Part shown: piece by piece, positions 11,558 to 60,802 of the stretch
Numbering within the stretch: the stretch's first letter is position 1
Layout: each line of letters begins with the position of its first letter
Source: Candidatus Doudnabacteria bacterium
Lineage (GTDB): Bacteria > Patescibacteriota > Doudnabacteria > UBA920 > VMFF01
Direction: 5' to 3'
Length of the DNA stretch: 64,000 bases
Assembly: GCA_028286905.1 (NCBI GenBank)
Contig: JAQBQP010000002.1
Span: 309,458 to 373,457 of the forward strand
Made by a program: the position numbers and the translations under genes
The notes under the pieces: model-generated
Told to the model about the DNA's origin: nothing
The model's input: the letters and a program-made list of their open reading frames with translations, nothing else
Databases searched by the model: none

Positions 11558-11618
11558 ATTGGTGATAAAATAGCTAAAAATTTAATACTGGATTTATTCT
11601 AGCTAAATTTGCTATAAT

Positions 11619-23534: not shown

Positions 23535-23586
23535 AGGATTTGGAAAGGATTACAGGATGGTTTAAGTGTCTTAAGTATACCTGATC

Positions 23587-23630
23587 GTTACACGTGATGA
23601 AAAATGTATCACGTGGATGTGTCACGTGAT
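23587..23630. promoter_or_regulatory. cluster of three CACGTG palindromes (two as TCACGTG) in the upstream region of the GIY-YIG gene
   Basis: ttaCACGTGatg...atCACGTGgat...gtCACGTGata within 40 bp. Confidence 0.4.
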
Positions 23631-24039
23631 AGGTCAGAAGATTTTAGAATAAAAATCTTAATATCTTAATTACAAGTATATAAATAAATATTTATTTATA
23701 TAAACTATCGTTGATGAGATAAGCGTGAAGCGAGAACTACAAAGAAAGCTAAAGTATTAGTAGAAGTTAGTTATACATTGGTTATTTACAATATACCTTG
23801 TCGCATAAGCTACATTGTGCGACAAGGTAATATTATGTATATAGTACCTTTCATATACCTCCCCCATGGGCCCCAGGATGTATTAGACGTCGTAGTCGTT
23901 GAGCTCAAACTAAAACACATTGCGACGTGTTCTCGGATTATATGGTTTGGACCCTGGTTCCAATACCCGGCACGGGGCTTGTTTATACTTTAAGTAAAGA
24001 CATAAAAGTATGTAACAACCCTGGTAATTAAGATAGCTA

Positions 24040-24058
24040 TTACTTATCCCCTGGTCTA
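24040..24058. repeat. left copy of an imperfect direct repeat bounding the accessory island (TTACT-tat-CCCCTGG-TCTA)
   Basis: Matches 31742-31758 TTACT-CCCCTGG-c-TCTA; the GC-rich 8-mer core is rare in this AT-rich sequence. Confidence 0.4.
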
Positions 24059-24497
24059 GGCTTGTTTGAGAATTAAAATAAAACTAGGATACGAATATGT
24101 TAATCACACGACAAAATCCAAATAGTGGTAGACCACTTAGAGTTATCCAATCGATCGCGATAAAAAGACCGGTCGAATGGGTTTCAAACTCGGTTATTGC
24201 TCGAAATGCTCTGAACCACTAGTAATAAAGATATCGGATGCGGGGTGAGGTGTCTAAGATGTTTATTCAACCCGAAGTAATAGAGCCCCCAAGGTTTCGC
24301 GAATTCAGCGCCTTAAGAAGCAACTGGTCGAAGCTATGGGTGAAACCATTCCTGAACCTAAATTTTATGATGAGCAAACATAAATATTACAAATCTTATT
24401 ACTACGTGAGCTATTTGGAGTTGCCACAAGATTATGATCGCTATTATGCAACCAAAGCTTTTCCTTACCCTTTTCTTTTGAATACATAGCCTTTAAA

Positions 24498-24842
24498 TTA
24501 GAAAGGGATATCCTCTATTCGTATTTCGTCTTCAACAAGATCTGCTTCAGGAACTTTAACAGAGTACTTGCTTATCGCAGCCTGGTATAAACTCTCTGCT
24601 TGTTTCTTAAATTGTTCCTTATCGCTTATGAAATTATTTAATTTGTTGTACAAGTTCAGGTATATTATTTGATGTGCTTTATTGCTAAGAGATCGCTCGT
24701 CATATGGGTCCATTTCAAAATCTTCGTTAGAAGCTAAATTTAGCAAGGATGATAAATCCTCTCTAGTTATCCTGTCTATTTCAACGTAATTCTCCCCCGT
24801 TTTGTAGTAAGCTTTTCCGTTATTTATATGTAAATACTTCAT
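24498..24842 (-). CDS. hypothetical 114-aa protein, operon partner of the PHP-ATPase gene
   Basis: Start ATG 3 nt after the stop of the upstream gene (TAAATCATG); acidic, no recognisable motif. Confidence 0.5.
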   Translation of the reverse strand: MKYLHINNGKAYYKTGENYVEIDRITREDLSSLLNLASNEDFEMDPYDERSLSNKAHQIIYLNLYNKLNNFISDKEQFKKQAESLYQAAISKYSVKVPEADLVEDEIRIEDIPF

Positions 24843-24845
24843 GAT

Positions 24846-26894
24846 TTATTTTTTAAAATTATTGTACAGCTCATTTCGTAACGCGTATGCTTCCACTCCT
24901 GCTTCAAGGGTAGCGAGGAGGATTTCGTAACTATCTACCTTCTCCATCCCATCAGCAGTTTTGAATTCCTTATCCCCCGGCGATCCTGAAAATATTTTAT
25001 ACGTGTCCTTGTCTTGGAAAATTGTTCGCTTTGTATACAGAACATAATCAGGACGCATTAACATACCTACGGTATTGTTATGTGTAACTACAATTACGGG
25101 AAGCTCCTTAGAAATATCTTTGATCTCTTTGTTAACATTTTCTTTTAAAAAAATGTTGTCAAAAGAAGATTCGGGTTCATCTATCAAAAGCATCTCGTAC
25201 TGTCGGGCATCCGCCAACGACTTAAGTAAATTGAATTCTGATCTTTCGCCACCTGATACCTCCTTATCATATTGATTTAGAACCTTGTATGTCACCTTAC
25301 AAAAATATCTATATAATTCGCTTTTTTCTAACCGGTCGATATTTTTCAACTCCTCTAAAAATTGAATTGGTATATCATATTTGGAATATGCACTACTAAA
25401 TTTAACATTTTTATGACTTTCGTCAGAAAGTTCCCCCGCACCGTTGAACTTACGAGCTATTGATCTAATCTTAAACTTTCTAAAAGAGGTGTTTTCATCA
25501 ATAATAGTTTCCTTCATTACTGCGAGAGCGATCGCGTTAAATTTTTTAAATTTTTCTCGTTCTAATTTCAAATCGTAAAAGTCTATCTCATTATGTTCAA
25601 TAATTGGACTTGAGGTTCGATTTTTTAAATTTTTCTGTGTTTCGCTAATCAAATCATTTACCCAAACCTTCTTCATTCTTTCTTCTGTATCCTGGATAAA
25701 GCGCTCTTTTAAATCGTCTAAAAGAGCGGCTAGACTTTTTGGCTGTATATGTCTATTGATTATCTCCTCATAGACTTGGTCTTTCAGTAAAATTATTACT
25801 GCTGCAATTATATCCTTTAGATCTTCAGTCGAGCGGATCGGATATAGATTTTCAGTAAATAAGGCAGTGTTTGAGAATTCATCGTGTTGCTTTTGATTCA
25901 AAGCAAACTCCAATAAGGACTCAATATACCTATTTAAAATATAATTCGTCTCTCTTCTATCTATTGTTACTACGTCATTAACTACTAACTTAAACTCATC
26001 CAAATATCTTTCTCGCGTATTACTTTTTGCATTCTCAAGATTTTTTTGAAATTTTTCCTTATCGTCACTAATTAACTCAAACTGTTCTATATATTTGATA
26101 GATTTTTCGTCGATATCGTAAACCTTTTTAAGATTGTTTAATAAGTTGGTTTTACCTGAAGATCTTTCGCCTAAAACTATATTGAGCCCATTCGATAAAA
26201 TCTGTCCATCATTAAAAACCTGAAAAAAATCTTGGCTTCCTATATTAGACAAGAAAACTTTGGATTTATCCTGGAGTGCGATCTTTATAACATTCAGAGA
26301 AAGTTTTTCTGAGTTTGTTTTAATAAAGGTCTGCCTGCCCTGAAGCTCGGCGAGATTTAAGTCATGGCTTACTCGACAATCACTAAATAAAACAGGTGTT
26401 AATGGGAGGTCTTCCTTCATCAATCTGTTAAATTTTTTAGGACTGCTTACCTCACCGGTAAAAATACAGTCATTTAGTAACTCGAAGGCATGCTGGTTTA
26501 CTCTTGGTTTTTTATCGTAATGGGGAACGAGTAGATAGTCACTTAGATTTACAAATATTTCCCTTAGCTTATTTGCTTTAACAGTGTCATTATTTTGCAA
26601 TTCCGCAGTGATTAAATCACATTTTTGACTAAAATCCTCTAGGTTTATGTTTTCTGAGACAAGTAATAAATGTCCGTTTTCAAAATCAATTTCTATCCCA
26701 GGAAGAATTACCGCGTTTGGCAAATCTCCAGTTATTTGTTGGAATTGTGCTTTGTTAAATAAATTGTGGTTAGTGATGGCCACAGCATCTAATGAGAAGG
26801 AAGTAAGGTATTCTTTAAACTTATCAAGTTCAAACTCAAAATAAGCGTCTTTTTTGGTGGGTACTGTATGCACATGTAAATCGATTTTTTTCAT
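24846..26894 (-). CDS. PHP-domain phosphoesterase fused to an ABC/SMC-like ATPase (Ppl-like candidate defence protein)
   Basis: 682 aa; N-terminal IDLHVHT...AITNHN...PGIEI PHP motifs. Walker A LGERSSGKTNLL, ABC signature VSGGERSEFNLL, Walker B/D-loop MLLIDEPESSFD, H-loop VIVVTHN. About 340 aa lie between Walker A and the signature, as in SMC/RecF/OLD-type ATPases. Confidence 0.7.
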   Translation of the reverse strand: MKKIDLHVHTVPTKKDAYFEFELDKFKEYLTSFSLDAVAITNHNLFNKAQFQQITGDLPNAVILPGIEIDFENGHLLLVSENINLEDFSQKCDLITAELQNNDTVKANKLREIFVNLSDYLLVPHYDKKPRVNQHAFELLNDCIFTGEVSSPKKFNRLMKEDLPLTPVLFSDCRVSHDLNLAELQGRQTFIKTNSEKLSLNVIKIALQDKSKVFLSNIGSQDFFQVFNDGQILSNGLNIVLGERSSGKTNLLNNLKKVYDIDEKSIKYIEQFELISDDKEKFQKNLENAKSNTRERYLDEFKLVVNDVVTIDRRETNYILNRYIESLLEFALNQKQHDEFSNTALFTENLYPIRSTEDLKDIIAAVIILLKDQVYEEIINRHIQPKSLAALLDDLKERFIQDTEERMKKVWVNDLISETQKNLKNRTSSPIIEHNEIDFYDLKLEREKFKKFNAIALAVMKETIIDENTSFRKFKIRSIARKFNGAGELSDESHKNVKFSSAYSKYDIPIQFLEELKNIDRLEKSELYRYFCKVTYKVLNQYDKEVSGGERSEFNLLKSLADARQYEMLLIDEPESSFDNIFLKENVNKEIKDISKELPVIVVTHNNTVGMLMRPDYVLYTKRTIFQDKDTYKIFSGSPGDKEFKTADGMEKVDSYEILLATLEAGVEAYALRNELYNNFKK

Positions 26895-26995
26895 ATGGAG
26901 TTACGGCAAACAAAAATTACTAAACTTATTATGCTCTTTGACCATCTAATTTGCAACGATTTATTAAATTTTGATTAAATTCAAGTTTTTCCTAA

Positions 26996-27064
26996 CTCTC
27001 CCCTGTTTTAACTTACCCACAAGAAAATTGCCGTGATCGCTTGCGCTACAGTGTGCGAAACAAA
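26996..27064. repeat. about 68-nt imperfect direct repeat, copy A (upstream of the PHP-ATPase promoter)
   Basis: ctctcccctgtttt...gatcgcttgcgctacagtgtgcgaaacaaaagag is about 78% identical to copy B at 27389-27456. Confidence 0.6.
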
Positions 27065-27095
27065 AGAGTACAATATCTGAATATCGTACTCTTAC
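27065..27095 (-). terminator. Rho-independent terminator after the 65-aa ORF
   Basis: AGAGTAC-N14-GTACTCT hairpin followed by TTTTGTTT on the minus strand. Confidence 0.6.
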
Positions 27096-27118
27096 TGTTT
27101 ACAGGCGTATTCCCTAAA

Positions 27119-27316
27119 TCAAGGGTGTCTCCTCCTTCTGCTAGGTCCAATAGGCTCTTGGCTATGAGGCGCATGTCTAGACAACTCGACCCCTCTGCGG
27201 ATTGGGGCATATTCCTTGCGCGCCTGCTGCTCCGCTCGCCGTATCTCTTCTTGACCTTCGGGGGTATTGGGATCAGGAAATGGATACGCTTCCAAAATTT
27301 CCAAGTCGCTCGGCAT
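27119..27316 (-). CDS. small GC-rich ORF (65 aa), acidic N-terminus and basic C-terminus
   Basis: AAGGA SD 5-6 nt before the ATG; the stop is followed by hairpin AGAGTAC...GTACTCT plus a U-run on the minus strand. Local GC far above the host GC. Confidence 0.45.
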   Translation of the reverse strand: MPSDLEILEAYPFPDPNTPEGQEEIRRAEQQARKEYAPIRRGVELSRHAPHSQEPIGPSRRRRHP

Positions 27317-27388
27317 AAATTCCTTTGGTTGAGATAAATCAAGTATATTCCGAAATTTTTATAATGTCTAAAAAAGTTTTTTCTATTC

Positions 27389-27456
27389 TCTCCCCTGTTT
27401 TTAGTTGTTCACGAAAATGCCAGATCCCTTGCGCTACATTATGCAAAAAACAAAGG
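27389..27456. repeat. about 68-nt imperfect direct repeat, copy B (upstream of the 65-aa ORF promoter)
   Basis: ctctcccctgttttt...gatcccttgcgctacattatgcaaaaaacaaaggag; each copy abuts a minus-strand terminator hairpin. Confidence 0.6.
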
Positions 27457-27490
27457 AGCCCTAACATTGCTGTTGGGCTCCTTGTTTAAT
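27455..27490 (-). terminator. Rho-independent terminator after the ParB-like gene
   Basis: GGAGCCC-N13-GGGCTCC hairpin followed by TTTGTTTTTTGC on the minus strand. Confidence 0.65.
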
Positions 27491-27513
27491 GTCGGAAAAA
27501 ATTCCTCCTGCAA

Positions 27514-28500
27514 CTACCTGTTCGCTGCGACTCGGCTTACAATGCTCAGCACTCCGGGCGGCGCCTTCACTGATTGTCCGTCGATTGCCTCGTGCAGCTG
27601 CTGCATTTGGCTCTGAGCTTTCGCGATACTACGCAACATCCGCTGCTTGTCCTTGTCGTCCCTGTGTTCAAACATCTTCTTGAACTGGGACATTGGCATG
27701 TCCATCACGATCTTGGTATCGAGCGTCAGCCGATTCAGGAAGCTCTCTACTCGGCGATAGTCATCGCTGGGACGCATCCTACGACCGTCGACCTTCGCGC
27801 CGCCTCGCAGGCTCTGTAGTTGCTGCCCGATGTAGAACCGCGCTTCCTTCAAGTTCATGTCGCTGCCGATGATGTATCGAGCCATCTGCAACTGCCGGTC
27901 GAATGGAAACGGAACCAGCATCACTGCTGTATTGACTCCCAGCTGCTGGTCTTTCGGCAATTCCGGGTTTAGCAGTGCCTGAACTCGAGAGTCTAGCTTC
28001 AGCAAGCTGAGGTGCTTGCTGACCCAAGCGCTATCTCTAGCACATAGCGAGGCGAGCTCGCCTTGGGTACAGTTACCACGGTCTTGCTGCATCTTTTGCA
28101 GACCGAGCGCGACTTCCATGACAGTCATGTCTACTCTGCCGACATTTTCGAGGAACGCATGTTCGTGCTGCTTCTCTGGACTGCGACGCTCCGAGATAAT
28201 CGCCCGCAACTTGTAGTTGGGGTCGACTGCCCCGCTTGCGCGCCAGCGGCGTTCTCCGATGTTCAACCGGAAGCGCATACCCGGGTTTTTCGCGATCTCC
28301 TCTTCGGTCAGCACACAGACCTCTATCGGAGTATGCTGGCCCGTTGTTTTGATGCTGTCTTCCAATTCTTTCAACTCTATTGGATCGAAATACTTCCGAG
28401 GCTGAGTCGGATCTCGCAGAATCTCACTGCGGTCGATCTCCAGCACCATCCCAACGACTACATTTGAGTCTGAGTCCAATGTCCGCGACTTTCTCGGCAT
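27514..28500 (-). CDS. ParB/Spo0J-family protein (ParB N-terminal nuclease-like domain plus HTH), orphan with no parA partner, GC-rich
   Basis: 328 aa; NIGERRWRASG (ParB box II GERRWRA), ENVGR...(ParB ENLQR-like), HTH TQGELASLCARDSAWVSKHLSLLKLDSRVQALL collinear with the Spo0J HTH. AGGAGG SD 6 nt upstream. GC around 58%. Confidence 0.7.
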   Translation of the reverse strand: MPRKSRTLDSDSNVVVGMVLEIDRSEILRDPTQPRKYFDPIELKELEDSIKTTGQHTPIEVCVLTEEEIAKNPGMRFRLNIGERRWRASGAVDPNYKLRAIISERRSPEKQHEHAFLENVGRVDMTVMEVALGLQKMQQDRGNCTQGELASLCARDSAWVSKHLSLLKLDSRVQALLNPELPKDQQLGVNTAVMLVPFPFDRQLQMARYIIGSDMNLKEARFYIGQQLQSLRGGAKVDGRRMRPSDDYRRVESFLNRLTLDTKIVMDMPMSQFKKMFEHRDDKDKQRMLRSIAKAQSQMQQLHEAIDGQSVKAPPGVLSIVSRVAANR

Positions 28501-28572
28501 GCTATCCTCCTGGGACGGTAGCGTTATAAAACTAAGTAAATTATGCGCCTTATTTTAGGTAAAACAAATCTG

Positions 28573-28893
28573 CTACTGCTCAAGCCGATCTGAGACAAGT
28601 CGTGCGATCGCATTCGCTATTTTGTTCAAATGAGTTACTATTAAAAAATTTGGAATGTGTAATGTTGAAGACCCTGCTTGATCAGAATAATGCTCTCTTT
28701 TAAAATCTACTAAGATTTGCGTCGGGTTTAAATAATGCTGCAGCCCATCGACTTCTATGTTGAGTTTGATCTCTGGTATATAGATATCGACATGTTTATA
28801 ACCGTCCCAATGTTCAGTGAGTAAATTTATATTTCTTTTCCTTAGCGCAATAGCGAGACGTAAGGCTTGTTTAGTTCGGAAAATTTTTGGCAT
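28573..28893 (-). CDS. DUF559-like (Vsr/restriction-endonuclease-fold) small endonuclease-domain protein
   Basis: 106 aa; IEVDGLQH...D..R pattern of DUF559 endonuclease-domain proteins. Confidence 0.4.
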   Translation of the reverse strand: MPKIFRTKQALRLAIALRKRNINLLTEHWDGYKHVDIYIPEIKLNIEVDGLQHYLNPTQILVDFKREHYSDQAGSSTLHIPNFLIVTHLNKIANAIARLVSDRLEQ

Positions 28894-28923
28894 TGTTTAG
28901 CATTATTTAATGTTTCTTTCTAA

Positions 28924-29352
28924 TTATTCATTTAAAGCTTCAAGCATATCCTTTGCCATCTCCTGATCAGCATTTATAAGGTCCCCTAGCATCTCCTGTC
29001 TTTGTTCAAGCGTTAGCTCTGCCTGGTCATATTTTATCAAAAGATCTTGCACTGCTGGATCAACTGCCGCAGACAGCAAATTTAATCGATTAAGTTCTTC
29101 AGTCGCGGCTTGAACATAACCGATATCAGTCTTATAAACTTCGGTAACCTTAGCTATTCTTTGGCCATCCGCAAAGATGTATTTTACCGTAGGAAGTGAT
29201 TCCGCTTGGATTGCTTCTTTGAATAAAGTTAAGTCATTTTCTGAAAAGGTATTAAAAAAAGCAGTTCTAAAAAGTCCGGTTTCTGGAACAAAGGTTAAAA
29301 TGGCTCCGATTTTTAAATTATCTTGAAAAATAACAATGACTTTATTTTGCAC
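28924..29352 (-). CDS. hypothetical protein (142 aa), 11-nt overlap with the upstream HExxH gene
   Basis: ORF with host-like AT content; no recognisable motif. Confidence 0.4.
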   Translation of the reverse strand: MQNKVIVIFQDNLKIGAILTFVPETGLFRTAFFNTFSENDLTLFKEAIQAESLPTVKYIFADGQRIAKVTEVYKTDIGYVQAATEELNRLNLLSAAVDPAVQDLLIKYDQAELTLEQRQEMLGDLINADQEMAKDMLEALNE

Positions 29353-30340
29353 TGTGCACCTTTCGCTTAGATTTTTGTTTAGGCTGCACTATTTCGGAAC
29401 GGCGGCGGTTAGCTTTAGCCCAATCAAAATTCGGGTCATGCTTTTTTATGTAAGCTCGAAAAAGATCTCGATCCGCTTTTGGAATTGTGTAAATTTCATT
29501 AGTTAAAACCTTAGAGCCTACTTCTGCAAAGTATTCAGTTGCTTTATACTGTAGTTCTTTTTGCTTATCCGGATTGTTTATGCTTTCAACATAATCTGAC
29601 TTGTATCTGTCAGGTGATTTAACTCGTTGAATAATATCTTGTAAAAGTCGTAGTCTTTCTTCGGTGGGAACGGACCTTGCCCCATACCAATCCGAATTAT
29701 GCCAAATTTCGTGTAGAAGAGTAGAATTAATAATTCTGGAAGCGCTAAATGATTTGGTTGCTGAAATTTTAATCTCTTTAGTGCTGTAGTCTGCTACTCC
29801 ATCCGCATTTTTTTCTTCCAAATTATATTCTGAACTCATAAGCAGGTTCTGCTCAAAGGAAATAGAGTAAGTATTTTCTTCTAAGAATTTAGGTATGGTC
29901 TGCTCCATGACCGCAGAAATTTGTTGATTATTAACTGCCAGGGATTCGAAGCCAGTAACATGGACTTTGCGGTCTTCGCCTTCAGCTTTTATTTTTCTAT
30001 TTCCGCTCCATTCACGTATAATGTGCATATTTTCCAAATAATCGATCAGAGCAGTCCCTACTTCCTGACGCAATGAATCAGCTAATGGCTGTATGTCTCT
30101 ATTTATGCCTTTTTCATAAGCTTGCGCTGTTGCCGATCTCAGCACTTCACCAATTATTGGAAATTTTTCTATTCCTTGTTTCGCGGACCAAGTTCCGCTA
30201 ATTTCAAACAATATGTAAAACATGAGCCTGCCATGGCGGCCTAGGTGCTTAGTCGCAAATTTATTTAGACGATTGTTTAAATTATTAGCCTTATCGGCTC
30301 TTGAAGGTTCGTAATTTTCAGGAGAATATCTTTCTGGCAT
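29342..30340 (-). CDS. hypothetical protein with an HExxH zinc-metallopeptidase-like motif
   Basis: 332 aa; LLHEIWHNSDWYG contains HEIWH; no other family assignment possible by eye. Confidence 0.4.
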   Translation of the reverse strand: MPERYSPENYEPSRADKANNLNNRLNKFATKHLGRHGRLMFYILFEISGTWSAKQGIEKFPIIGEVLRSATAQAYEKGINRDIQPLADSLRQEVGTALIDYLENMHIIREWSGNRKIKAEGEDRKVHVTGFESLAVNNQQISAVMEQTIPKFLEENTYSISFEQNLLMSSEYNLEEKNADGVADYSTKEIKISATKSFSASRIINSTLLHEIWHNSDWYGARSVPTEERLRLLQDIIQRVKSPDRYKSDYVESINNPDKQKELQYKATEYFAEVGSKVLTNEIYTIPKADRDLFRAYIKKHDPNFDWAKANRRRSEIVQPKQKSKRKVHSAK

Positions 30341-30375
30341 GAATAAAGTATATCAGTTGGCATAAATTACTCCAA

Positions 30376-30404
30376 TTGCTAGGAAGCTTTAGTTTTGGTA
30401 TAAT
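30376..30404 (+). promoter_or_regulatory. sigma70-type promoter with an extended -10 (TTGCTA-N17-TGgTATAAT) for the 191-aa GC-rich gene
   Basis: -35 TTGCTA at 30376-30381, TG at 30396-30397, -10 TATAAT at 30399-30404. A 9/10 inverted repeat ATTCGTAAGG-N6-CCCTACGAAT lies at 30424-30452, between the promoter and the RBS. Confidence 0.6.
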
Positions 30405-30467
30405 TGATAATCGGTTCTATTCGTAAGGATATTCCCTACGAATCCCTCAAACCTCAAGAGGTGGCAT

Positions 30468-31043
30468 ATGCCTGTTTCGTGGCAAGTTATGCTCGTTGCT
30501 GTTTTGGTCATTTGGCCCGCAACCAAGTTGTACGATCGTTGGCAGCGCACTCAAGAAGTAAAGGAAAGCGAGCCGATTCCGAGTCCGGATGTCGTGGCGG
30601 TCTTCCGGAAATCCGAGGCTTTGCAGGTGTATGCCTGCAAACATTCCGGCCCGGAAACCTTTTCCATCTGGATCTATGGCCAGGAGCAGCAGTATTCAAG
30701 TGCGCCGCAGGCAGACCCGCTCTCACTGGTAACCTATACCACAAAGTGCCCGGAGTGCCTGCTGCGATCTTCCGAACAGTACATTCGGCGCTGCGCTGTT
30801 TGCGGCGGCCCGATCCTCGCTGGGGACAACGTTTCACTTCATGAGACCGCCGAGGAAGGTCTGCGTCTGGACATCGCCACCGAAGTGGCGCCGATGCAAG
30901 TTCTGGGTTGTGCCAAGCAGGAGTGCTGGCAAGGCGCGAACCTGCACGTTGGAATCTGGGATGGAGAGAAGGTTGTTCCATCTTATGGCGGTGGGACATA
31001 CAAAGAAACGCTCCTGGCGTTTCTCGCTACAGCCATTACATAG
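30468..31043 (+). CDS. GC-rich hypothetical membrane-anchored protein with a Cys-rich (CPEC...CAVC) zinc-ribbon-like segment
   Basis: 191 aa; strong SD AAGAGGTGG 4 nt before the ATG; N-terminal TM helix; overlapping ORFs on the other strand and in other frames are Arg-rich antisense artefacts. Confidence 0.55.
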   Translation: MPVSWQVMLVAVLVIWPATKLYDRWQRTQEVKESEPIPSPDVVAVFRKSEALQVYACKHSGPETFSIWIYGQEQQYSSAPQADPLSLVTYTTKCPECLLRSSEQYIRRCAVCGGPILAGDNVSLHETAEEGLRLDIATEVAPMQVLGCAKQECWQGANLHVGIWDGEKVVPSYGGGTYKETLLAFLATAIT

Positions 31044-31151
31044 GAGGAGTTTGCCGAGCATATAAAACATTGGTCGAAGTTGATCCAAACAAATGAGAGC
31101 CTGACCAGCTCTCTTTTCTTTTATTTCTTTATTATTTTTTTCAAACTAAAA

Positions 31152-31179
31152 GGAGCTGAATGCAATTGCAAGCAGCTCC
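31152..31179 (-). terminator. Rho-independent terminator after the two-gene GC-rich minus-strand operon
   Basis: GGAGCTG-N14-CAGCTCC hairpin followed by TTTTAGTTTG on the minus strand. Confidence 0.55.
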
Positions 31180-31208
31180 TCGTAGGTTGTAGTTCACACA
31201 CTTCTTGG

Positions 31209-31445
31209 CTAGTCCTCCCAGCTAATTCCGCTGGAGAGGCAGAGGCGGTGGGTTTCCACTTGCTCTGCCGTCATCTCCAAACGAAGCGGGAGCAAAGGTC
31301 GTGGCTGAACCTTAGGGGCGTAGAGCGAGCAGGATGTGTTACTGCACGGCTCGGAAATCAGCCGGGTCTGACCACATCTACTGCACAAGGCGCTCCTGAT
31401 GATGTGGTCATCGAAGGCCGCGATGCCCGTCAGGACCGCTTTCAT
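31209..31445 (-). CDS. GC-rich small Cys-containing protein (78 aa), translationally coupled to the upstream gene
   Basis: Start ATG overlaps the stop of the preceding gene (GAATGAAAGCG: ATGA overlap); followed by a terminator. Confidence 0.4.
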   Translation of the reverse strand: MKAVLTGIAAFDDHIIRSALCSRCGQTRLISEPCSNTSCSLYAPKVQPRPLLPLRLEMTAEQVETHRLCLSSGISWED

Positions 31446-31633
31446 TCGAACGGCAGCGGTGAGGCGCAGTGAGCACACTTCGCGCCATCGGGGGTCTGTT
31501 GACGACAGTTGCCGCACTGGATCTCCGGCCGCTGCGAAGCCGTCCGACTCACCGGCTCGGACGCTGGCCGTCCATTCGGAATCCGACTCGTCGAACGCAC
31601 GATCCTGGGTCCTTCATGCGAGGTTTCGGTCAT
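31442..31633 (-). CDS. GC-rich small zinc-ribbon protein (63 aa, C-terminal CGNC...CAHC)
   Basis: SD AGAGAGGG 5 nt before the ATG (MTETSHEG...); two CxxC pairs at the C-terminus. Confidence 0.45.
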   Translation of the reverse strand: MTETSHEGPRIVRSTSRIPNGRPASEPVSRTASQRPEIQCGNCRQQTPDGAKCAHCASPLPFE

Positions 31634-31741
31634 AGTGCCCTCTCTGGCCTGGTTGTTGTGAACTATTGATATCCCCCTGTGACTTGCACTTTCGTTTACT
31701 TTCTTGATTGTGCAATAAATCACGGAATAGTTCAAGCCCCT

Positions 31742-31758
31742 TTACTCCCCTGGCTCTA
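31742..31758. repeat. right copy of the island-bounding imperfect direct repeat, overlapping the PspC gene's 3' end
   Basis: TTACTCCCCTGGCTCTA compared with 24040-24058. Confidence 0.4.
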
Positions 31759-33409
31759 ATGTAGTTTGATCGTTTAACACCTGAGAAATTTTAGCTTTGC
31801 CGAAGTATACAGCGTTGCTAAAATCATTCAAGGTAATTTTCATAGTATTAAGAGCATTAATCCTTAAAGAAGCAAGGTCTTTACCAGAGACAACCGCATC
31901 TTTTGCAATAAAGTTCTGGCCATCAAAGTTAGAAGAATCTGCAGCTGAAAGAGCCAATGAGTCGGCGCTTCCATTTATGATGACATCGCCGCTATCTTTA
32001 ACACTAATATCTGCTTCTTTTGTTGTAACACCAAGATTTGCGGAAGCAACAGTGCCAACATTCAAAATAAGTTTATCGGTTTTTAAGTTTTCAGCATTGA
32101 ATTTTGTCCAGCCGTTCACATCTATTTCATCAATCTTAGGCATGGCTATTTCAACGTTTATAGTATTCCTACCGCCGCAAAAGAAACAGAATCTATGGTC
32201 TGATTTCTGAACGAACACTAAAGCATTATTTTTAACTTCAAAGGTTACTCGATCTAAATCAATTTGTCGGCCGGTTTCAGAAATATTGAATTTATCGCTT
32301 TGAACTAAATGGACGTGGTCGACCCCATGTAAATCTAATTTTGTAAAACCTTTAAGATCTATTGTTTTGGTTTGCTGCTGATATTCTGGACGGCTTTGAA
32401 TCTTATCAATATATGTCGGGCCAAAGCGAACCCACATAAATCCTGCGGCCATTAAGCCAATAAACCAAAGCCCTAATAAGCTAAACCCGCTCTTATAATT
32501 CAAAGCGTTTTTTCTAAACAATAATGTGACCGCAAGAAGCAGTACAAAAATTACAGGAATTAAAGCGATTAAATAAATTACAAATACTGAGAAGTAATAA
32601 TCTGGACCGCCGCTAATTTGGGCTAAAGGAAATTGAACATACGGTGAATGAGCATTAAACAGTAAATTTATTGCAGCAAACGTTATAGCGGCTAACATAC
32701 CCATTGCACCCAAACCGATAAATAATCCAATTAGCTTAGAAGCTATCTTCAGCGCTACTTTAAATAACACTCCAATTGCGGCCACTAGTTTTTCTAAGCC
32801 AGATCCGCCGTGGGTTTTAACGCGTTCTTTGAATTCATTCGCTTGAGTTTTTACAGATTTGATTTGATTATCAAGGTTGCTTAAGTTAATTGCTTCGCCG
32901 CGCATTTCCATTTTTTCAGTTGGAGTTTTCGCTTCAGGCAGGACTAGCCATAAAATTAAGTACAATAAAATTCCGCTACCGCCAAACAGTACAATAACTA
33001 TAAAAACTAACCTGACGATTAACGGATCAATGCCAGCATAGGCTGCCAATCCAGACGCAACTCCGGCAACGATTTTATTATCCGCATCACGCATAACTCT
33101 GCGGCCGCCAAATCTAGTTTGCTTGGTGGTGTGATCGGTGGATGAATCCGCGCCTTCTTGAAAATCTGCAGTAGTTCCCATTGAGGCAATTAAATTTTCA
33201 ACATCGTTTTCGCTGATAATCTTGCTTTTGCTATCATCAGAAAAATGCTCAGCAATTCTGCTTTCCATGTCTTTGATAATTTCTTCGTGGTCTGGATAAG
33301 AGCTAAAGTGTTTTTTGATGCTTTCGAGATATTGTTCAAGCTTGGCGTAAGCGTCCTCTTCAATATTGAATATTGTTCCGCCGATGTTAATGTTAATTGT
33401 TTTTTTCAT
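31742..33409 (-). CDS. PspC-domain membrane protein with N-terminal and C-terminal toastrack-like (DUF4097-like) regions
   Basis: 555 aa; central PspC motif (KIVAGVASGLAAYAGIDPLIVRLVFIVIVLFGG), several TM helices, beta-rich C-terminus. Confidence 0.75.
   Translation of the reverse strand: MKKTININIGGTIFNIEEDAYAKLEQYLESIKKHFSSYPDHEEIIKDMESRIAEHFSDDSKSKIISENDVENLIASMGTTADFQEGADSSTDHTTKQTRFGGRRVMRDADNKIVAGVASGLAAYAGIDPLIVRLVFIVIVLFGGSGILLYLILWLVLPEAKTPTEKMEMRGEAINLSNLDNQIKSVKTQANEFKERVKTHGGSGLEKLVAAIGVLFKVALKIASKLIGLFIGLGAMGMLAAITFAAINLLFNAHSPYVQFPLAQISGGPDYYFSVFVIYLIALIPVIFVLLLAVTLLFRKNALNYKSGFSLLGLWFIGLMAAGFMWVRFGPTYIDKIQSRPEYQQQTKTIDLKGFTKLDLHGVDHVHLVQSDKFNISETGRQIDLDRVTFEVKNNALVFVQKSDHRFCFFCGGRNTINVEIAMPKIDEIDVNGWTKFNAENLKTDKLILNVGTVASANLGVTTKEADISVKDSGDVIINGSADSLALSAADSSNFDGQNFIAKDAVVSGKDLASLRINALNTMKITLNDFSNAVYFGKAKISQVLNDQTTLEPGE

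Positions 33410-56250: not shown

Positions 56251-60802
<4,552 letters not shown>

Follow-up and report, generated by a model that had tools for sequence, protein, structure and literature searches.

In an uncultured CPR bacterium, represented by a Candidatus Doudnabacteria MAG, two neighbouring intergenic gaps contain copies of the same non-coding sequence of about 85 bases. The duplication is real, and the similarity of the two gaps is far beyond chance: the local alignment of the whole gaps, copy A against copy B, scores 42, versus 11.0 ± 1.6 (maximum 18.5) in 1000 shuffles. The reading that we favour, to which we assign a probability of roughly 35%, is that the copies encode sibling small RNAs of about 115–120 nt on the plus strand. 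All coordinates below refer to the window, i.e., the whole stretch of 64 kb that was analysed.

Extent, integrity and distribution of the repeat

The core of copy A extends from 26983 to 27065 and has a GC content of 46%, versus 26% in the remainder of its gap; the core of copy B (27374–27453) has a GC content of 42%, versus 21% in the remainder. Weaker homology continues beyond the core of copy A to about 26960, and the envelope of copy B determined by nhmmer comprises 27372–27458. Blastn against the window aligned the copies at 77–78% identity over 84–86 columns (E = 7.5e-9), and the MAFFT alignment of the copies including their flanks gave a mean column identity of 77%. The alignment of the two copies comprises about 85 columns with a single 4-nt indel. 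A repeat search of the window reported two pairs of segments, 26986–27025 with 27378–27417 (73% identity) and 27035–27065 with 27423–27453 (81% identity). The first-pass annotation of this DNA had described two imperfect repeats, about 78% identical and sharing blocks, and these were borne out at the places where it had put them.

The blocks shared exactly by the two copies comprise 14 nt and 11 + 4 nt. Block 1 (plus strand, CTCTCCCCTGTTTT; minus strand, AAAACAGGGGAGAG) is an exact match at 26996–27009 in copy A, and the 14-mer at 27388–27401 in copy B is identical to it. Block 2, also given on the plus strand, reads GATCGCTTGCGCTACA in copy A (27035–27050) and GATCCCTTGCGCTACA in copy B (27423–27438). 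Exact matches to CTCTCCCCTGTTTT and to GATC[GC]CTTGCGCTACA in the 64-kb window are located at the two copies only. Past the cores, local alignment revealed weaker homology of A and B through the AT-rich part to about the motif AAAATTT, and possibly to the start codons.

Self-BLAST of the window found no non-coding direct repeats other than copies A and B. The check for further copies, suggested in the first-pass annotation, covered the 64-kb window and 19 kb of extra flanks, in which nhmmer found no third full copy and only a weak partial match. This match, GCACAATGTAGC, may be part of a third copy, from around block 2. It is located on the minus strand at 23796–23832, inside a hairpin with an 11-bp stem, and its E-value of 0.2 is by itself not significant. 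The repeat is not an assembly artefact, since an independent assembly of SRR13312974 by Logan agrees with the window at every base from 23801 to 32316.

Nothing like the repeats appears in the public data searched. Blastn detected no homologues of the repeat in PLSDB plasmids or INPHARED phages. The two-block DNA pattern had no true match in IMG/VR or in 185,579 reference genomes, one for each GTDB species, all four of its matches in these collections being chance occurrences within coding regions. No Rfam family reached its gathering threshold over the repeat, and only a tRNA did so in the window. The proposed check of homologous loci could be made for the operon downstream of copy A, a candidate defence system of the PDC-M49 type. 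In 80 metagenome loci encoding PDC-M49A homologues with 40–59% amino acid identity, nhmmer and block searches found no repeat upstream of the gene; PDC-M49 systems therefore do not include the repeat as a conserved component. As a test of the repeat itself, conservation is not a fair one, because the genome has no close relatives: the flanking PspC gene reaches no more than 44% identity, that of its closest relative, and both the ParB-like gene and the 65-aa ORF next to the copies are orphans. The repeat, with its two copies, is private to one uncultured lineage.

Gene order and transcription signals around the copies

Read on the minus strand, the ParB-like gene is followed by hairpin B with its T-run, repeat B, an AT-rich stretch and the 65-aa ORF, and then by hairpin A with its T-run, repeat A, a further AT-rich stretch, the PHP-ABC-ATPase gene and a 114-aa gene. 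Each repeat copy is located between an intrinsic terminator and a sigma-70-type promoter candidate of the next minus-strand gene. The two repeat-bearing gaps are 224 and 197 nt long, while the median gap of the genome is 18 nt.

The last two genes constitute the candidate defence operon PDC-M49 (24498–26894, minus strand), comprising the PHP-ABC-ATPase of 682 aa (24846–26894) and its 114-aa partner (24498–24842). The operon had been described as defence-like, and its matches to PADLOC PDC-M49A (E = 2e-232) and PDC-M49B (E = 5e-31) confirm it as a defence candidate. Its nearest homologues are about 60% identical and are found in other CPR genomes. A literature search for PDC-M49 found no paper.

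The gene upstream of copy B (27514–28500, minus strand, 55% GC) contains ParB_N and HTH_ParB domains with a GERRWR box. A score of 79.9 bits for TIGR00180, versus a cutoff of 58.45, and PDB matches to ParB, Noc and KorB show that its product is a true member of the ParB/Spo0J/KorB family, so the adjoining ParB unit noted before does contain a ParB/KorB-family HTH gene next door to the repeat. The gene is an orphan and has no ParA partner; its single homologue, with 30% identity, is located within a normal ParA-ParB locus.

The putative coding sequence between the copies (27119–27316, minus strand, 53% GC) would encode 65 amino acids. It is likewise an orphan, with no homologues among 1.84 billion representatives, and its codon-position GC gives no clear coding-frame signal. 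The segment has no RNA-structure signal (z = +1.3 on both strands). A tandem-duplication model, in which it would be the decayed 3′ end of parB, was rejected, as no similarity was found at the DNA or protein level.

The GC content of the area is a mosaic, with 53% in the 65-aa ORF, about 55% in parB and 33% in PDC-M49, the genome having about 38%. Shine-Dalgarno sites of the GGAG type precede the foreign, GC-rich genes of this area, whereas most native genes lack a leader and have a TTGCAA-N17-TGnTATAAT promoter whose end lies some 6 nt ahead of the ATG.

The statement that each repeat abuts a terminator hairpin was confirmed for both copies on the minus strand (A, 27093–27064; B, 27483–27453), with a T-run after each hairpin. 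Terminator A (27064–27093) has a 13-bp stem, a 4-nt loop and the tail TTTTGTTT on the minus strand; on the plus strand its stem contains one A.C mismatch, and with the tail UUACUGUUU it is the weaker, mediocre version. Terminator B (27453–27483) is a GGAGCCC...GGGCUCC hairpin with the minus-strand tail TTTGTTTTTT, and was also flagged on the plus strand by the terminator scan, with the tail CTCCTTGTTT, which makes it bidirectional. A G+C-containing hairpin with a U-run was found for A by the minus-strand scan and for B by both the plus-strand scan and minus-strand folding (tail UUUGUUUUUU). As the 3′ end of a plus-strand RNA, hairpin B has a good tail (UUGUUUAAU) and hairpin A a mediocre one. 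Both hairpins can terminate in both directions, because A-runs are located upstream and T-runs downstream of each, although they terminate better on the minus strand than on the plus strand.

The PDC-M49 operon has its minus-strand promoter candidate at 26928–26956 (TTGCAA-N17-CATAAT), which is of the same type as the native promoters and is followed by a 33-nt leader; that of the 65-aa ORF (27342–27370) is TAGACA-N17-TATACT. The candidate sigma-70 promoters that had been placed between each repeat and the next start are thus present as consensus matches, at a number that is the level of shuffled sequence (2 in the region versus 1.8 ± 1.2 in shuffles). The distance of about 75–85 bp between the repeats and the start codons did not hold, block 1 ending 101 nt before the start in A and 71 nt in B. 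The part of gap A that corresponds to the copy-B promoter looks degenerate, and the separate native-type promoter with its leader is located beyond it.

Plus-strand signals were scored with a position weight matrix derived from 18 native leaderless promoters of the genome (consensus TTGCAA-N17-TGnTATAAT). The top-scoring native-type −10 of each gap is located on the plus strand, and the two occupy homologous positions. In copy A the candidate (26951–26980) comprises TTGCAA, an 18-nt spacer and TGaTTAAAT (26972–26980), scoring 5.8 bits (top 0.26% of the window); its TTGCAA is a perfect palindrome shared with the ATPase promoter, and its best register has no −11 A. Copy B has a perfect TATAAT (27360–27365) that precedes block 1 by 22 nt; its score of 8.2 bits is among the top 0.05% of the window, and a good −35 is missing. 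Both scores are within the range of the training set, 5.4–12.0 bits. A generic sigma-70 scan revealed no plus-strand promoter in the region, and the perfect TATAAT occurs in 75 copies in the AT-rich window.

Possible sibling small RNAs and competing readings of the repeat

In the favoured reading the repeats are paralogous copies of one intergenic module, and the GC-richer conserved core would be a non-coding transcription unit of small size that runs along the plus strand, against the direction of the flanking genes. Each RNA would start about 7 nt after its −10 (TGaTTAAAT in copy A, TATAAT in copy B), giving a putative RNA A of about 116 nt (26987–27102) and a putative RNA B of about 120 nt (27372–27492), with predicted ends. 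The transcripts would consist of an unpaired CU-rich 5′ segment (CUCUCCCCUGUUUU), a small hairpin UUGCG...UGCRA and an A-rich linker, with the 3′ end at the hairpin that serves the convergent upstream gene as terminator too. We infer the transcription of these RNAs, its strand, their ends and any target from the sequence. Two modes of action may be envisaged. The CU-rich segment could pair with purine-rich ribosome-binding sites, such as the GGAG-type sites of the GC-rich foreign genes, or the RNAs could act as counter-transcripts against the read-through RNA of the upstream gene, as repABC ctRNAs do.

The extent of the homology is consistent with this layout: the similarity of A and B spans the plus-strand unit from promoter to terminator, including AAATTTT with the −10 region, the core, and the T/A-run at the hairpin. 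In plus-strand folds of either copy the CU-rich block stays single-stranded and the small hairpin forms, with a change from U.G to U-A between the copies. The conserved blocks are strongly asymmetric and polypyrimidine, a feature more in keeping with an RNA or a promoter than with a dimeric DNA-binding site. The clumped identities, GC-richer cores and long gaps, discussed below, also count in favour of this reading. RNAalifold applied to the two sequences predicted 5 pairs, with the one U.G/U-A change and no compensatory pair, and the z-scores of the core (−0.3 to +1.2) give no thermodynamic indication of structure on either strand. The negative z-scores of the full units are due to the terminator hairpins, the sequences of which are not conserved between the copies. 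Target prediction for the CU-rich segment was unspecific, the ParB start region ranking 5th of 64 start regions. A duplicated small RNA, which the first-pass annotation had offered as an alternative to an operator, therefore fits the anatomy somewhat better than the operator does, owing to the plus-strand −10s and the bidirectional hairpin. Against it stand the missing structure signal of the core, the imperfect plus-strand promoters, the frequency of TATAAT in this DNA, the better termination on the minus strand and the unspecific target prediction.

Sibling small RNAs are exemplified by AbcR1/2, the streptococcal csRNAs and Listeria LhrC. A close comparison is with NmsRA and NmsRB of Neisseria, tandem siblings with about 70% identity and anti-SD motifs (PMC5362039). 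Like these, the copies described here occupy neighbouring intergenic positions within a shared identity range of 70–78%, would give RNAs of about 100–120 nt with their own predicted −10 and predicted terminal hairpin, and have a conserved pyrimidine-rich segment that is unpaired in the predicted folds. Unlike NmsRA and NmsRB, they are separated by a small opposite-strand ORF rather than being directly tandem, have no conserved secondary structure and no homologue elsewhere, and differ in their terminator hairpins.

The ctRNA gene of repABC systems is located in the gap after the ParB homologue repB and is antisense to the operon. The RNA predicted here resembles this ctRNA (RF00489) in being located in a gap downstream of a ParB-family gene, in running opposite to the operon, in its hairpin end, and in its complementarity to a read-through mRNA. 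It differs in that repA and repC are absent, and that the Rfam match, which is the best local one (ctRNA_p42d), reaches 25.2 bits versus a gathering score of 50, covers terminator hairpin B only, and lies on the gene's own strand.

The same copies could be a neutral relic, i.e., a terminator-to-promoter gap that was copied during the assembly of a mosaic island, for example when related mobile elements recombined or through unequal exchange, and that is now decaying without function. We regard this as possible but doubtful. It would account for the presence of only two adjacent copies in a patchwork of DNA with GC contents of 33%, 53% and 55%, in which all neighbouring genes are orphans or distant homologues, for the lack of conservation in any search, and for the degenerate promoter counterpart in copy A with its separate native-type promoter downstream. 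Simple segmental duplication would be marked by duplicated flanking coding DNA, and none was found. The distribution of identities between the copies can be read both ways. The longest identical run alone was equalled in 2–8% of permutations, depending on trimming, and is marginal in the trimmed core (P = 0.05–0.08), as expected of a relic, but the two longest runs taken together (14 and 11 nt) exceed expectation, being equalled in 0.2–2% of permutations (P = 0.002–0.02). Decay is also at odds with cores whose GC content still exceeds that of the surrounding gap by 20 points, and with the survival of such long gaps in a streamlined genome. Taken as signs of constraint, the clumped identity, the GC-richer cores and the long gaps are weak to moderate. 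No conserved micro-ORF was found on either strand of the repeat.

Alternatively, the blocks may be DNA sites of a shared regulator coupling the 65-aa ORF to the PDC-M49 operon, a reading that we consider unlikely. One candidate for this regulator is the orphan ParB/KorB-like CTPase encoded next to the repeats; another is a partner capturing it, as in KorA/KorB and BisC/BisD. Regulation of promoters on mobile elements by ParB-like clamps is documented (PMC11790492; PMC12409273), and here a ParB-CTPase-family HTH protein is encoded immediately upstream. Both copies precede good minus-strand promoter candidates, that of the ATPase being of the native TTGCAA-N17 type, and conservation is clumped into two blocks. 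As with the KorB operator OB of IncP plasmids and the bisS sites of BisD on ICEclc, a ParB-CTPase-family protein on acquired DNA would be combined with repeated sites at variable distances upstream of several promoters; unlike those sites, the blocks are asymmetric (PMC11790492; PMC12409273). The known sites of ParB, KorB, Noc and BisD are palindromes of 13–23 bp, whereas neither block is palindromic, no inverted repeat is common to both copies, and a parS/KorB/Noc-type site was rejected because no palindrome lies inside either repeat and no parS was found within 3 mismatches. The spacing of the blocks differs by 4 nt (40 versus 36 nt, centre to centre) and the distance from block to promoter by about 22 nt; together with the asymmetry, these differences do not favour a dimeric operator. 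The heptamer CTTGCGC, part of block 2, is found again in the 65-aa ORF and within an 18-bp near-palindrome of the parB-like gene, but its count in the window, 10, is close to the 9.4 expected. Near-palindromes of 18 bp are located in the parB-like gene at 28048–28065 and 28232–28249. Nothing similar to the repeat precedes the 80 PDC-M49A homologues, and no further copy precedes other island genes. For the shared operator, or UAS, proposed in the first-pass annotation, the anatomy stood, with terminator, repeat and promoter in the order described, while its function gained no support, yet was not refuted. A sigma-54 reading of the repeats was negative, as judged by eye on the sequence.

A highly improbable reading is that the repeats are att-like sites, the scars or targets of the insertion of small cassettes (the 65-aa ORF, PDC-M49) at a hotspot. 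It is suggested by the position of the direct repeats on either side of a compositionally distinct 392-bp unit of promoter, ORF and terminator, and by the weak third match to block 2, located at the far end of the PDC-M49 segment, where two Logan contigs meet with a 30-nt overlap. The break at 23801 proves little, however, since Logan contigs also break inside ordinary conserved genes (e.g., 56425–56454), and the copies are 22% diverged, with a third match that is not significant. Like integron attC sites, the repeats are imperfect direct repeats between successive same-strand genes, beside hairpins; unlike them, they have no R″/R′ cores and no overall imperfect palindrome. No paired RYYYAAC/GTTRRRY cores were found in 26880–27530 on either strand, and no integrase, transposase, recombinase or reverse transcriptase is encoded by any annotated ORF of the 64-kb window. 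The proposal that the repeat is a recombination site of a cassette is matched by neither a recombinase among these ORFs nor attC-like features.

Several other classes of repeated sequence were rejected. The template and variable repeats of a diversity-generating retroelement do not agree with the mixed mismatches between the copies (C/T 8, T/A 7, G/A 5, and others), and no reverse transcriptase was found. A dispersed repeat of the MITE, REP or BOX type does not agree with a count of two copies over the 64-kb window and its 19 kb of flanks, or with the absence of terminal inverted repeats. The sequence ...ACTAAAAACAGGGGAGAG may resemble a T7/T3-like promoter; no phage RNA polymerase gene is present.

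Implications for gene regulation in CPR bacteria

Next to nothing is known of gene regulation in CPR/Patescibacteria, because these organisms are uncultured and have tiny genomes. The window brings together native leaderless genes with TTGCAA-N17-TGnTATAAT promoters and foreign GC-rich genes that keep their Shine-Dalgarno sites. Since the host genes are leaderless, small RNAs pairing with such sites would selectively control the acquired genes beside the PDC-M49 operon. The full form of the favoured reading, which we consider quite improbable, is that the copies encode regulatory small RNAs, the first to be described from a CPR bacterium, acting either as a sibling pair on the Shine-Dalgarno sites of GC-rich foreign genes, the ParB-like gene among them, or as counter-transcripts gating read-through from the ParB-CTPase gene into the defence operon. 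At present the value of the repeat is that of a target for transcript mapping rather than that of a finding. If verified, a small RNA or an operator module at this position would provide a rare handle on the control of acquired genes, including PDC-M49, in CPR bacteria.

The PDC-M49 operon and the adjoining stretch

The operon of the PHP-ABC-ATPase and its 114-aa partner (24498-26894, minus strand) corresponds over its full length to the PADLOC candidate system PDC-M49, with E values of 2e-232 for PDC-M49A (24846-26894) and 5e-31 for PDC-M49B (24498-24842). There are more than 1000 homologues; the nearest (about 60%) belong to other CPR/Patescibacteria and to one Nanoarchaeota MAG. A literature search on PDC-M49 returned no paper.

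The stretch of about 960 bp extending from the PDC-M49B stop codon to the GIY-YIG gene (23535-24497) contains few genes. No convincing ORF was found in it, nor any match in Rfam, and its folding z-score is approximately -2.6 to -3.0 on either strand. Three closely spaced palindromes with a CACGTG core (about 23570-23640) are located directly upstream of the GIY-YIG start; the stretch also contains a perfect 26-nt AT palindrome (23677-23702) and a hairpin with an 11-bp stem (23796-23832), the loop of which is similar to block 2, one of the two blocks shared exactly by the direct repeats. In the independent Logan assembly of SRR13312974, contigs _19415 and _77788 meet exactly within this hairpin, and their overlap of 30 nt (23801-23830) indicates a branch point of the assembly graph. 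The junction could mark an edge of a variable segment; it may, however, carry little meaning, since the opposite end of _19415 breaks within an ordinary conserved gene (56425-56454).

The segment between the repeats and the parB-like gene

The GC-rich segment between the two repeats is spanned by three overlapping ORFs (27041-27342): two minus-strand ORFs, of 65 and 98 aa, and one plus-strand ORF, also of 98 aa. The codon-position GC content of all three frames is unlike that of the parB-like gene, and the 65-aa ORF may thus not be a genuine protein gene.

The parB-like gene (27514-28500, minus strand) itself contains the only two GC-rich 18-bp near-palindromes of the entire window, CGAGGCGAGCTCGCCTTG (28048-28065) and CCGCTTGCGCGCCAGCGG (28232-28249). 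CTTGCGC, present in block 2 of the repeats, also occurs in the second near-palindrome, which agrees with 27215-27230, within the 65-aa ORF, at 14 of 16 nt. By analogy with intragenic bisS or parS sites, the ParB-like protein could load at these two near-palindromes.

Native expression signals and GC-rich patches

In this CPR genome, native promoters have the form TTGCAA-N17-TGnTATAAT, with about 6 nt from the -10 element to the ATG, and are seen across the whole window (for example, at 11613, 16820, 36354, 37547, and 44338); native mRNAs appear to be leaderless as a rule. In contrast to the leaderless native genes, those of the GC-rich patches carry Shine-Dalgarno sites. These patches, with 53-64% GC in a genome of 33-38% GC, lie at 27100-27320, 27500-28500, 30450-31050, and 31150-31700, and further ones at about 39-41 and 55-56 kb. 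The ORFs in 30450-31700 overlap on both strands and have no family match. Two back-to-back hairpin terminators (31140-31190 and 31085-31115) separate the GC-rich small ORFs from a convergent 191-aa gene, and the first of them shares the outer stem AGGAGC...GCTCCTTTT with the hairpin terminator at 27453-27483 abutting the second repeat. The GC-rich patches are probably fragments gained horizontally.
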